A DNA stretch of 4,787 nucleotides from a virus (taxonomy: Duplodnaviria; Heunggongvirae; Uroviricota; Caudoviricetes). Where the stretch lies: the IMG/VR virus record IMGVR_UViG_3300039368_000073; one strand, given 5' to 3'. Below the pieces are notes generated by a model. It was not told the origin of the DNA, did no database searches, and saw only the letters and a program-made list of their open reading frames with translations. Of this stretch, positions 2,115 through 3,077 are shown in pieces. The stretch's first letter is position 1, and every line of letters begins with the position of its first letter. The position numbers and the translations under genes were made by a program.

Positions 2115-3077
2115 TCACCCCCTGAATCCCGGCGGTATTTCAGTGTCCGGTTCAGAAATGTGATTCACGCAACGCTGCGCAGGCGAACGCCCCAGGCGGA
2201 TAACCAGTTCATCCCATTTTTCCCGGAGTTTTGCCGGACTCATGATGTTTTTTACCCAGAACGAATCCCGCTGGAGACGCCCAAACATTTCACAAATTTG
2301 TCTGTGAGTTCTGCCATCCAGCATCCGCATTGTGCGAACGTCATTGGCCCATGCTGTCCAGTTGGGTTCTTTCGGTCTAGTGATCTCGCCATCATCGCTG
2401 GCCGCCTGCTCGTAAAGACTCACGATTCGTCCCCAGATCCACTGTGCGCACACCAAATCTTCCTGACTTCCCCACTGGCGTTTTTTCGCACTGAACACAA
2501 CCGCGTCAGGGTGTCGGGTTAAAAAATCCTGTTCAGCCGTCTGCGGGTCCGGTTGCGAAGCGTCCGGACAAGAAGATCTTTTATCTGACGGATCAGGTTT
2601 TAATACTGACGGATCGGGGTCAATCATCGCCCCCCTAATCGGCAGTTTTTTATCAACAGTTGATCCATCAAAATTTGACAGGTCAACCGTTGAGGGGTCA
2701 ATATTTGACGGGTCAACTGTTAACGGGTCATTTTTTGCCGGGCTAATTTTTCTTTTCGGTTTATATGACTCACGCGCCGCCGCCGCAGCTGCTTCGAGTT
2801 TTTCCACATTAAGCCGATAGATATTGCTTACATTACGCCCACCGACCTTACGCTCTTCCTTCGTCAGCCAGCCCTCTTTCGCCAGTTCTGCAATAGCCGA
2901 TTTCACTGTGGATTCACTTCTTGCACCGATCTGACGCCGGATAGTTTCAATGGCAGGCCATGACACGCCCTCGTCATTGCTGTAGTCTGCAAGACGGGCC
3001 ATAACCGCCACCCTGGATAAGATCATGCCGGTGAAGGCGCACCCTTCCCAGACAAGACCATGAAGCTTGCTGCTCAT
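2115..3077 (-). CDS. replication initiator protein, lambda O-like (N-terminal HTH_36-type domain, internal repeat region, C-terminal domain)
   Basis: Start is taken as ATG at 3077..3075 (MSSKLHG...), preceded by a G-rich RBS; the ORF-track start at 3092 is a GTG only 5 nt after the ydaT-like stop. The N-terminus LSRVAVMARLADYSNDEGVSWPAIETIRRQIGARSESTVKSAIAELAKEGWL is typical of phage replication initiators. The middle is encoded by direct DNA repeats (LTVDPSNIDPSTVDLSNFDGSTVD), as with the ori inside lambda O. Confidence 0.85.
   Translation of the reverse strand: MSSKLHGLVWEGCAFTGMILSRVAVMARLADYSNDEGVSWPAIETIRRQIGARSESTVKSAIAELAKEGWLTKEERKVGGRNVSNIYRLNVEKLEAAAAAARESYKPKRKISPAKNDPLTVDPSNIDPSTVDLSNFDGSTVDKKLPIRGAMIDPDPSVLKPDPSDKRSSCPDASQPDPQTAEQDFLTRHPDAVVFSAKKRQWGSQEDLVCAQWIWGRIVSLYEQAASDDGEITRPKEPNWTAWANDVRTMRMLDGRTHRQICEMFGRLQRDSFWVKNIMSPAKLREKWDELVIRLGRSPAQRCVNHISEPDTEIPPGFRG
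2645..2735. repeat. iteron array, probable phage replication origin, inside the O-like gene
   Basis: Two adjacent 30-bp units (2673..2702 atttgacaggtcaaccgttgaggggtcaat and 2703..2732 atttgacgggtcaactgttaacgggtcatt) are 25/30 identical. A degenerate copy lies at 2651..2672. Each unit carries an internal palindrome TCAAC-N-GTTGA. A moderately AT-rich stretch (about 2728..2775, cattttttgccgggctaatttttcttttcggtttatatgac) flanks one side. A related short direct repeat ctgacggatc(a/g)gg occurs at 2585..2597 and 2607..2619. Confidence 0.7.

Follow-up and report, generated by a model that had tools for sequence, protein, structure and literature searches.

The replication origin of phage lambda (ori-lambda) lies within the initiator gene O, in the linker that joins the DNA-binding N-domain to the C-domain. 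Its iterons, annotated at O codons 117-145, are 18-19 bp long, spaced ~20-24 bp apart, and share the dyad-symmetric motif TCCCTC-N5-GAGGGA. They are followed on the C-terminal side by AT-rich and then GC-rich DNA, and the gene belongs to a cro-cII-O-P-type early operon. Six-iteron origins of the lambda type have also been described for the Stx phages 933W and P27 (PMC7466680). Mid-gene repeat arrays are likewise present in the initiators of mEp460 and of the Rac prophage ydaU-ydaV module (oriJ); the oriJ papers do not give a sequence-level map. Iteron plasmids (RepA, pi, and TrfA) combine a winged-helix initiator with tandem initiator-binding repeats beside an AT-rich unwinding element; these iterons are typically 17-22 bp long and helically phased, and lie outside the rep gene close to DnaA boxes (PMC4980987). 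A literature search found no description of the origin of the initiator family considered here.

The stretch of DNA analyzed in this study (the window, 4,787 nucleotides or 4.8 kb) corresponds to the module for immunity and replication of a lambdoid prophage that is very common in E. coli. Its early genes are arranged in a pR-type operon (cro, ydaT/cII-like, O-like, dnaC-like), the same layout as in mEp460 and the Rac module (cro-like, ydaT/cII-like, initiator, DnaC-like loader). The segment at approximately 2550-2729, embedded in the linker of the prophage's own initiator gene, is probably its replication origin (Table 1). This assignment is based on a bounded island of synonymous-site conservation, on co-variation between repeats and N-domain, and on a codon position equivalent to that in lambda, as anchored by a homologous C-domain. 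It is further based on the predicted disorder of the encoded peptide, on the replacement of both N-domain and array in mEp460, on the onset of similarity to SfII-type genes at the junction, and on natural alleles that differ by whole repeat units. In addition, the array is the only tandem array of the module and resides in the early operon beside a DnaC-like loader. A preliminary description had proposed a dual-purpose segment of this kind, both coding sequence and initiator-binding array, by analogy with ori-lambda, and the comparative sequence evidence strongly supports that proposal.

Table 1. Coordinates of the initiator gene, its partner, and the elements of the putative origin within the window
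Feature	Position	Strand	Basis or remark
O-like replication initiator gene	2115..3077	-	320 aa; ORF; 963-nt CDS also in RefSeq
DnaC-like helicase loader gene	1362..2108	-	directly downstream of the O-like gene; partner of the initiator, at the position of P in lambda
N-terminal winged helix-turn-helix domain (aa 1-105), presumed iteron-binding	2763..3077	-	AlphaFold model
Disordered interdomain linker (aa 109-168), predicted	2574..2753	-	pLDDT <50 in AlphaFold model
C-terminal domain (aa 178-297), presumed recruiter of the helicase-loader complex	2187..2546	-	homologue of the lambda O C-domain
Bounded synonymous-site conservation island (array and junction), extent of the DNA-level element	2550..2729	.	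same-codon fractions
Iteron array, five in-frame 15-bp units, codons 117-141	2653..2729	-	repeat searches and conservation in relatives
Spacer from array to junction, with G6 run and decayed distal unit	2619..2652	-	row-by-row comparison of class A relatives
Junction element: two GATCCGTCAG repeats, AT-rich DNA, three GATC sites; candidate unwinding region	2560..2618	-	conservation and composition
A-rich coding-strand tract, 23% GC, encoding the Lys/Arg-rich YKPKRKISPAK	2743..2768	-	composition; class A (the window's subtype) only

The locus shares with ori-lambda its place in the linker of an initiator gene, repeats with dyad symmetry, an AT-rich region on the C-terminal side, and the type of early operon; the order of repeats, AT-rich DNA, and GC-rich DNA is matched point for point. 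Unlike the lambda iterons, the units are contiguous, 15 bp long, and exactly five codons each, with the motifs TCAA-N3-TTGA and GAYCCGTCA, and the AT-rich part contains two further repeat sites as well as conserved GATCs. The N-domain belongs to HTH_36 rather than to the lambda type, the partner is a DnaC-like AAA+ loader instead of lambda P, and the initiator ends in a DnaT-like tail. Overall, this is very probably an origin built like that of phage lambda, but with different repeats. It also differs from iteron plasmids: the 15-bp period, an array within coding sequence, and DnaA-box-like matches at chance level all depart from the plasmid pattern.

In the O-like initiator (Pfam HTH_36, E 2e-6; PHROG 391 'replication initiation O-like', E 2e-115), a winged-helix domain at the N-terminus is joined by a disordered linker to a lambda-O-like C-domain, and the protein ends in a DnaT-like tail. 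In RefSeq its coding sequence is named 'helix-turn-helix domain-containing protein', and the annotation of the one RefSeq record examined contains no origin feature. The modeled N-domain (pLDDT 73-86) comprises helices at residues 3-16, 20-31, 43-50, 55-67, and 91-105 and a wing at 71-89; its best Foldseek matches are winged-helix regulators of the ArsR, MarR, and PadR types, all of them weak (E of 4e-3 or higher). BLASTP detected no similarity to lambda O in the N-terminal part, and Pfam assigned no lambda-O N-domain family. The C-domain (pLDDT 76-95) is 39% identical to that of lambda O over 119 aa (BLASTP, E 5e-26) and shares 86.6% nucleotide identity with mEp460-type phages, whose N-domain differs. 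For the extreme C-terminal tail, the DnaT paper PMC13377028 provides no explanation of its role. One homologue is named 'Replication protein 15', yet phi80 does not appear among the phage N-domain matches listed (60 of 63), and the phi80 gp15 lead was discarded. The downstream loader is a DnaC/IstB-type AAA+ protein and not of the lambda P type (Pfam IstB_IS21, E 2.5e-17; NCBIfam PRK12377, E 3e-151, and DnaC, E 5e-88; PHROG 50 'DnaC-like helicase loader').

The linker is translated as DPLTVDPSNIDPSTVDLSNFDGSTVD, the repetitive mid-initiator segment that the preliminary description had recognized, and the five or six 15-bp units fall inside this pLDDT<50 region. Tandem Repeats Finder recovers a single array at 2653-2742, either at period 15 (5.2 copies, 69% matches) or at period 30 (2.3-2.5 copies, 79-82% matches, scores 82-94), and no other sizeable tandem array in the 4.8-kb window. 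The repeat search yields five copies at exact 15-bp spacing, which on the coding strand read GACCCGTTAACAGTT, GACCCGTCAAATATT, GACCCCTCAACGGTT, GACCTGTCAAATTTT, and GATGGATCAACTGTT; a degenerate sixth unit follows at 2640-2654. The tandem repeats first described as 30 bp long are therefore real, but their unit is 15 bp, or five codons. The 30-bp period is only apparent, because TCAAC-N-GTTGA units (at 2653 and 2683, and degenerate at 2713, bearing out the palindromes noted previously) alternate with TCAA-WAT-TTGA units (at 2668 and 2698). The array thus consists of alternating TTGAC and GTCAA pentamers that give TCAA-N3-TTGA palindromes, perfect in four units and with a single mismatch in one. 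With up to one mismatch, the core GAYCCGTCA has 10 matches in the window where 2.0 would be expected, a count reached in 0/200 shuffles, and seven of these sites lie within 2586-2729. The total for TCAANNNTTGA is not significant (6 versus 2.8 expected; 16/200 shuffles reached 6); its non-random part is the exact 15-bp phasing of five of the six sites. Since a unit spans five codons, its gain or loss preserves the reading frame, and natural alleles of the array differ by minus 15 or minus 30 bp. All copies from the IMG/VR scan have a 100%-identical N-domain and are informative about allele frequencies, not divergence. The spacing of the units, about 1.4 helical turns with half-site centres 7-8 bp apart, is atypical of iterons and of binding by winged-helix dimers, and counts against an origin.

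The initiators of SfII, SfIV, and phiNP-type phages, annotated as replication protein O or primosomal protein I, form class B of the same family, whereas the window belongs to class A. Class B proteins share the N-domain family (~66% identity) and often the C-domain, and their genes show the same 15-bp in-frame array architecture with the junction element GATCCGTCAGTAAA...GATCCATCAGATAAAA. Their units, in contrast, are direct repeats with weak dyad symmetry (consensus GAC-GCA-TCA-AAA-TCT, compared with GAC-CCC-TCA-AAT-ATT in class A), and the A-rich, Lys-rich tract upstream of the array is missing. Window-type N-domains are paired with xTT units (50 versus 3) and SfII-type N-domains with TCT units (270 versus 35), an association with a Fisher p of 3e-34 among units that are not phylogenetically independent. 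Nucleotide similarity to SfII-type genes starts exactly at position 2615, in the junction, where N-modules and C-modules are reshuffled. Modularity is also seen in mEp460, in which the same C-domain is joined to an unrelated N-domain and an unrelated array occupies the same place (five 23-bp and three 12-bp units); in the Rac initiator YdaU, the N-domain is DUF1376 and the repeats are 14-mers at 33-bp spacing, neither being related to those of the window. Repeats are present and conserved in the orthologous initiator genes, with 2-12 units per relative. A few relatives, such as P0105 and P0103, have almost no array, which speaks against the origin reading; in these, either the junction sites suffice or the copies are defective.

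Conservation was assessed in 59 non-redundant relatives from many enterobacterial genera. The fraction of identical codons is 0.77-0.97 within the island, compared with 0.28-0.54 for the N- and C-domains on either side, whose synonymous sites are saturated; at conserved residues of the N-domain, it averages 0.395 (64 columns). In class B units (n=265), Ser is encoded by TCA in 252/254 cases and Lys by AAA in 155/155, while all three positions of codon 2 vary freely. Class A units encode Ile only by ATT (25/25), Val only by GTT (15/15), and Asn at unit position 4 only by AAT (21/21). Unit position 3 of class A exchanges Ser, Pro, Leu, and Ala (TCA, CCA, TTA/CTA, and GCA), all of them A-ending, the final A being a criterion by which units were selected in the class A set. 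Third-codon positions are thus among the best conserved in the units, while the first and second positions of codon 2 vary; such a pattern is the reverse of protein-level selection. The codon comparison shows that the array and junction are selected as DNA and not merely as coding sequence.

It might be proposed that the repeats simply encode a protein linker of low complexity, with tandem copies of a pentapeptide (DPSxx) gained and lost by slippage, and that the DNA has no function of its own. Copy number does change by whole units, the repetitive peptide is predicted to be disordered, and slippage would homogenize codons within one gene. Nevertheless, codon choice is fixed across genera in which the synonymous sites of both protein domains are saturated, and radical amino-acid replacements (Ser, Pro, and Leu; Pro, Gly, Ala, and Leu) leave the TGA/TCA motif nucleotides unchanged. 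Unit positions 4 and 5 hold just those residues that A-first and xTT codons can encode, and the repeat subtype tracks the N-domain subtype. A purely protein-level origin of the repeats is consequently very improbable. Amino-acid variation in the linker follows the DNA motif, and the peptide appears to be a disordered tether whose sequence is largely dictated by that motif.

The array strand folds into a long hairpin (-17.1 kcal/mol, z = -5.5 versus shuffles), and an Rfam search of the region gave chance-level matches only, including a weak one to a miRNA hairpin model. These features would be compatible with regulation by an mRNA hairpin within the O-like transcript, acting on how the initiator and loader message is translated or how stable it is. 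However, the hairpin follows automatically from palindromic units that alternate, and class B arrays, with little dyad symmetry, are at least as conserved. Conservation falls on fixed triplets and not on compensatory pairs, no Rfam family is significant, and a scan of 2400-3200 found no promoter-like or terminator-like sites, which makes a function at the RNA level highly unlikely.

The junction element is kept nearly nucleotide for nucleotide in more than 30 enterobacterial genera and across two iteron specificities. Its two GATCCGTCAG sites, at 2607-2615 and 2586-2594, are 21 bp apart and are contained in CTGACGGATCGGG (2606-2618) and CTGACGGATCAGG (2585-2597), respectively. These correspond to the 'additional shorter direct repeats' of the preliminary description, which are real and in fact constitute the part of the element most strongly conserved as DNA. 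Codon identity here is ~0.9-1.0 in the 59 relatives (GAT 59/59, TCA 45/45, and GTA 52/53). GATC sites are located at 2575, 2591, and 2612, and four such sites fall within 91 bp (2575-2665) compared with one per 281 bp across the window. The family-conserved AT-rich minimum (29-39% GC over ~55 nt) extends from 2615 towards 2560, on the C-terminal side of the array, with a G+C-rich clamp of ~0.6 immediately before the junction; in the window, 2568-2607 has 32.5% GC over 40 bp. In the intervening spacer, class A relatives carry GGGTCAATGGTTGAC and the window carries GGGGCGATGATTGAC.

The AT-rich stretch had initially been placed at 2728..2775, on the N-terminal side of the iterons, and regarded as a difference from lambda. 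This arrangement fails at the family level, where the conserved minimum is C-terminal as in lambda. The N-terminal stretch is indeed poorer in GC than the window (37.5% versus 49.9%), but only modestly so and outside the window's least stable 50-mers; its core (58% T on the plus strand) is absent from class B relatives and not conserved in the family. The AT-rich part of the junction is itself only moderate and lies outside the window's twelve least stable 50-mers, which counts against the origin reading.

An alternative is that the initiator or a host factor does bind the island as a functional DNA element but that replication does not start there: it could be an autoregulatory, titration, or handcuffing array, a control region sensed by Dam and SeqA, or a conserved 'linker' for module exchange through homologous recombination, with unwinding elsewhere. 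The moderate AT-richness would fit, as would the GATC cluster, the first junction GATC being present in 59/59 relatives. The coincidence of the junction with the boundary of module exchange also fits, and part of its conservation could reflect recombination instead of origin function. On the other hand, recombination alone fails to explain fixed third-codon positions next to a free codon 2, and the idea of strict SeqA phasing is weakened because GATC spacing varies among relatives (18, 21, or 24 bp). The replication module contains no other repeat array or candidate origin, and the anatomy is that of ori-lambda point for point, over the same codons of a homologous initiator. An element without initiation is accordingly a rather improbable explanation.

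If the segment is the origin, transcription of the pR-type operon would pass through it. The winged-helix N-domain would bind the five or six 15-bp units (core GAY-NNN-TCA-A..TT), and probably the two related GATCCGTCAG sites downstream, forming a nucleoprotein complex similar to the lambda O-some. The AT-rich, GATC-bearing junction (~2560-2615) would then be unwound, and the lambda-O-like C-domain, possibly together with the DnaT-like tail, would recruit host DnaB via the phage DnaC-like loader. A variant, unlikely but slightly less so than an element without initiation, is that the ~60-bp junction (GATCCGTCAG-N-GATCCGTCAG and AT-rich DNA) forms a distinct, methylation-sensed origin core. In this variant the in-frame iterons would be too closely packed for a lambda-like O-some and would load initiator monomers on alternating helix faces, and firing would be gated by Dam and SeqA through the paired GATC sites; the resulting initiation geometry would be unlike that of any characterized lambdoid origin. 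Host-factor sites were sought and rejected. The DnaA-box scan (TTWTNCACA, at most one mismatch) gave 12 matches versus 10 expected by chance, the sole perfect DnaA-like box (2800-2808) falls on codons not shared by class B relatives, and IHF consensus matches were at or below chance.

With the origin defined, prophage induction, escape replication, and lambda-dv-like mini-replicons would become accessible through a testable cis element, and lambdoid prophages could perhaps be typed by replication specificity or incompatibility. The segment is also an unusually clean case of dual-use sequence, in which a DNA element dictates the amino-acid sequence of a protein segment, and its sharply bounded synonymous-conservation signal could serve to find origins in other O-like genes.

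A search of plasmids for an independent replicon with this module returned mostly mislabelled chromosomes or prophage-bearing megaplasmids. One 16-kb circular record is made solely of the prophage's early region; it is suggestive of initiator-dependent replication of the fragment but could be an assembly artefact. Among complete E. coli genomes, the module is matched in 2599 of 5426 (about half), ST131 and O157:H7 strains among them, and almost the entire query is present in 1517.

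The window covers the immunity and early-replication module of an Escherichia coli lambdoid prophage. Its 2500-3092 segment matches strain SCU-387 at 100% identity and both ST131 strain EC958 and an O157:H7 strain at 99.7%, and as a query it found a match in 2599 of 5426 complete E. coli genomes, with at least 80% of the query matched in 1517. No origin feature is annotated in the RefSeq record examined (EC958), and a description of this origin was not found in the literature searched, coverage of which was incomplete. A G+C-rich hairpin with a T run behind it (4503-4536; cagaacccgcattcattgcgggtttttt) immediately follows the stop codon of the repressor gene; it looks like that gene's intrinsic terminator and probably accounts for a weak Rfam Trp_leader match (E 0.028).

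Genes of the module, parts of the modelled initiator and units of its repeat array
Feature	Position	Strand	Remarks
S24/LexA-type repressor	3790-4503	plus	
P22-Cro-like gene	3522-3737	minus	One operon with the other minus-strand genes
YdaT/cII-like gene	3100-3525	minus	Same operon as O-like initiator
O-like initiator	2115-3077	minus	RefSeq name 'helix-turn-helix domain-containing protein'
DnaC-like loader	1362-2108	minus	Same operon as O-like initiator
DUF1627 gene		minus	Same operon as O-like initiator
Winged-helix N-domain	aa 1-105		AlphaFold model, confident
Linker	aa 109-168 (2574-2753)		AlphaFold model, pLDDT <50
Helical C-domain	aa 178-297		AlphaFold model, confident
Floppy tail	after C-domain		AlphaFold model
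Array units 1-5 (coding strand)	codons 117-141		GACCCGTTAACAGTT, GACCCGTCAAATATT, GACCCCTCAACGGTT, GACCTGTCAAATTTT, GATGGATCAACTGTT

Tandem Repeats Finder and a repeat search of the window returned a single array, at 2653-2742. Its basic period is 15 bp, with five copies at exact spacing (translated DPLTV, DPSNI, DPSTV, DLSNF and DGSTV); the 30-bp unit of the preliminary description is a period superimposed on this one, because TCAAC-N-GTTGA units alternate with TCAA-WAT-TTGA units. The pentamers TTGAC and GTCAA alternate along the array, separated by 2 and 3 bp, so that two overlapping sets of palindromes can be read, and half-sites lie 7-8 bp apart at the 15-bp unit spacing. The repeats, shorter direct repeats and AT-rich stretch described earlier are all present: the short repeats (2585-2597 and 2606-2618) are two copies of GATCCGTCAG on the coding strand, 21 bp apart, and the AT-rich stretch (2728-2775) has 37.5% GC, with a 26-bp core (2743-2768) of 23%. 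The opposite side of the array has an AT-rich stretch of its own (2568-2607, 32.5% GC). Allowing at most one mismatch, the window contains 10 copies of the core GAYCCGTCA where 2.0 are expected, a count reached in 0 of 200 shuffles, and seven of the ten sites fall in 2586-2729. In the fourth unit (2676-2684), the window reads GACCTGTCA (Asp-Leu-Ser; GACCTG, DLSNF), which is a rare allele. Of 80 IMG/VR contigs whose N-domain is identical, 1 has this allele and 77 have the common form GACCCGTCA (Asp-Pro-Ser; GACCCG, DPSNF); the change falls in the variable codon 2. Array length is constant in the 79 full-length contigs of these 80 (the other ends inside the linker), and alleles of greater divergence are shorter by exactly one or two units (15 or 30 bp). 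Since a unit is five codons, its loss or gain is frame-neutral.

For comparison, 80 loci with the same N-domain were taken from GTDB species representatives of genera including Erwinia, Edwardsiella, Morganella, Enterobacter, Kosakonia, Yersinia, Providencia, Rahnella, Ewingella and Pantoea, and were cut to 59 sequences with <93% nucleotide identity within the N-domain. All 59 carry in the linker a five-codon-period array of 2-12 copies followed by a conserved junction. At residues conserved in the protein, the fraction of sequence pairs sharing the same codon averages 0.395 in the N-domain (maximum 0.79; 64 columns), so that synonymous sites are saturated there. In the full-length codon alignment this fraction is 0.28-0.54 across the N- and C-domains and 0.77-0.97 in one bounded island, which comprises the array and junction (~2550-2729). 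In class B units (the TCT-bearing units of SfII-type relatives; n=265), 252 of 254 Ser codons are TCA and all 155 Lys codons are AAA, while each of the three positions of codon 2 is variable. Class A units (the window's own xTT subtype) always encode Ile by ATT (25/25), Val by GTT (15/15) and Asn at unit position 4 by AAT (21/21); Ser, Pro, Leu and Ala interchange at position 3, where the final A is imposed by the unit-selection rule and is not independent evidence. Only residues with A-first codons (N, T, K) are seen at position 4 and only those with xTT codons (I, V, F) at position 5, as the motif TCA-Ann-nTT-GA requires. This within-unit pattern is the reverse of protein-level selection: selection acts on the DNA, and the disordered peptide follows it. 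A reading of the repeats as significant for the protein only is excluded by the codon data from both unit classes and the 59-relative alignment, and the array and junction very probably constitute a functional element at the DNA level. A few class B homologues (P0103, P0104, P0105) have zero or one unit before the junction, and others, such as P0078 and P0102, have at least 10; the junction sites may suffice for an origin, or else the short alleles may be defective.

In favour of an RNA-level element, the array folds into a strong hairpin (z = -5.5). However, such a hairpin is an inevitable product of the palindromes, class B arrays are equally conserved without such symmetry, and both the Rfam search and promoter and terminator scans of 2400-3200 were negative, making a role as RNA very improbable.

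The best-conserved stretch is the junction rather than the array, downstream of which it lies in the coding direction. Its consensus in the 59 relatives is …GGGGATCCGTCAGTAAAnTCAAAAnnnGATCCATCAGATAAAAAA…, with Asp encoded by GAT in 59/59, Ser by TCA in 45/45 and Val by GTA in 52/53, and it includes a pair of sites that resemble the array core (GAYCCRTCA). The 91 bp from 2575 to 2665 hold four GATC (Dam) sites (three in the junction, one in the array), compared with 17 in the 4787-bp window; those inside the two GATCCGTCAG repeats are kept in 59/59 and 53/59 relatives, at a spacing of 18, 21 or 24 bp. A family-wide GC minimum of 0.29-0.39 over ~55 nt (2615 down to ~2560 in the window) is preceded by a G+C-rich clamp and followed by a GC-rich segment. 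The conserved order along transcription, from repeats to AT-rich to GC-rich DNA, is that of lambda. The preliminary description, in which the AT-rich stretch lay N-terminal of the iterons and the layout was inverted relative to lambda, does not hold in this respect: the A-rich tract at 2743-2768, which encodes a Lys/Arg-rich segment, occurs in class A only. The junction is common to both repeat subtypes and to genes with different C-domains, and is absent from mEp460-type genes, whose N-domain differs. Because it follows the N-domain rather than the C-domain or repeat subtype, it belongs to the module of origin plus N-domain.

In the AlphaFold model of the initiator (input, 55 homologues), the array falls in the disordered linker. 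The N-domain has weak matches to ArsR, MarR and PadR-type winged-helix regulators, and the C-domain is homologous to that of lambda O (39% identity, E 5e-26). In lambda, the annotated iterons fall in O codons 117-145; at codons 117-141, beside a homologous C-domain, the window's repeats are placed as in lambda O. DnaT of E. coli (primosomal protein I; PDB 2ru8, 6aep, 9zbt) has an extreme C-terminus that matches the last 21 residues of the initiator (aa 300-320; 2118-2180, minus; …SEPDTEIPPGFRG, …NHISEPDTEIPPGFRG; E about 0.01; ~15/21 identical to 2ru8), a resemblance that explains the name 'primosomal protein I' among phage homologues. This match suggests that the tail docks on DnaT's partner, possibly DnaB/DnaC; the role of the DnaT extreme C-terminal tail is not stated in a 2026 preprimosome paper (PMC13377028).

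Repeat subtype co-varies with the N-domain: window-type N-domains are accompanied by xTT units (50 vs 3) and SfII-type N-domains, ~66% identical to the window's, by TCT units (270 vs 35; Fisher p = 3e-34, the units not being phylogenetically independent). The window and SfII-type genes become similar in nucleotide sequence exactly at 2615. Since arrays track N-domains and similarity starts at this point, the initiator appears to be built as an N-domain-plus-origin cassette with interchangeable C-domains, which is the classical picture of origin specificity in lambda, phi80 and P22. The C-domain of mEp460 shares 86.6% nucleotide identity with the window's, whereas its N-domain is unrelated. In the corresponding part of its linker, the O-like gene of mEp460_ev081 (L087:1958-2129) carries 23-bp palindromic repeats (CATCnGGnCATTTTGACCnGATG), five or six in number, with three 12-bp AT-rich repeats (TATTCTCTGTAG) on their C-terminal side, and represents an independent example of the origin-in-linker design. 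Rac ydaU of E. coli K-12 occupies the same operon position as the window's initiator (ydaS-ydaT-ydaU-ydaV) but has a DUF1376 N-domain; four mid-gene 14-mers (AAGCAGATGTTCAA-like; L006:3472-3563), spaced 33, 33 and 12 bp, may represent iterons of oriJ, the Rac origin, a sequence-level map of which was not found in the literature searched. In phiP27 (AJ298298 / NC_003356, 10334-10615; database matches H140, H141), an HTH_36 N-domain homologue with 53.7% identity is annotated as hypothetical, and the 'P27' origin has been described with lambda-type TCCCTC iterons (PMC7466680); the two may be separate elements or may come from separate phages.

The region ~2550-2729 is probably, to judge from its sequence, a lambda-type origin of replication inside the initiator gene, specific to this family in its 15-bp in-frame iterons and highly conserved GATC-bearing AT-rich core. 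The earlier placement of an origin in the O-like gene thus gains support from bounded codon conservation, N-domain co-variation and the ori-lambda position. The N-domain would bind the 15-bp units, the junction would be unwound, and the C-domain, perhaps with the DnaT-like tail, would recruit DnaB via the DnaC-like loader. A DNA element with a non-initiation role, whether a control or titration array, a Dam/SeqA-sensed region or a module-boundary recombination linker, is unlikely and nevertheless the serious residual alternative to an origin. The window scan showed no enrichment of DnaA boxes or IHF sites: relaxed DnaA-box matches were at chance level (12 vs 10 expected), and the one perfect match (2800-2808, plus; TTTTCCACA), which is ~35 bp away from the A-rich tract, falls in codons (NVEKLE) that class B relatives do not share.

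A 16-kb sequence whose label is that of a circular E. coli plasmid (L088; NZ_CP148542.1, 15977 bp) comprises only the repressor, cro, replication, Q and lysis region of this prophage, with an initiator 93% identical in protein to the window's and no replicon type assigned by MOB-suite. It could be a lambda-dv-like autonomous replicon or an assembly artefact; if it does replicate autonomously, it would speak for a working origin within the module. Typical enterobacterial versions of the module also occur in contigs labelled Vagococcus, Chryseobacterium and Martelella (L033, L039, L024) and in 'Elizabethkingia phage' OM284015.1 (H138), which suggests contamination or mislabelling of these assemblies.
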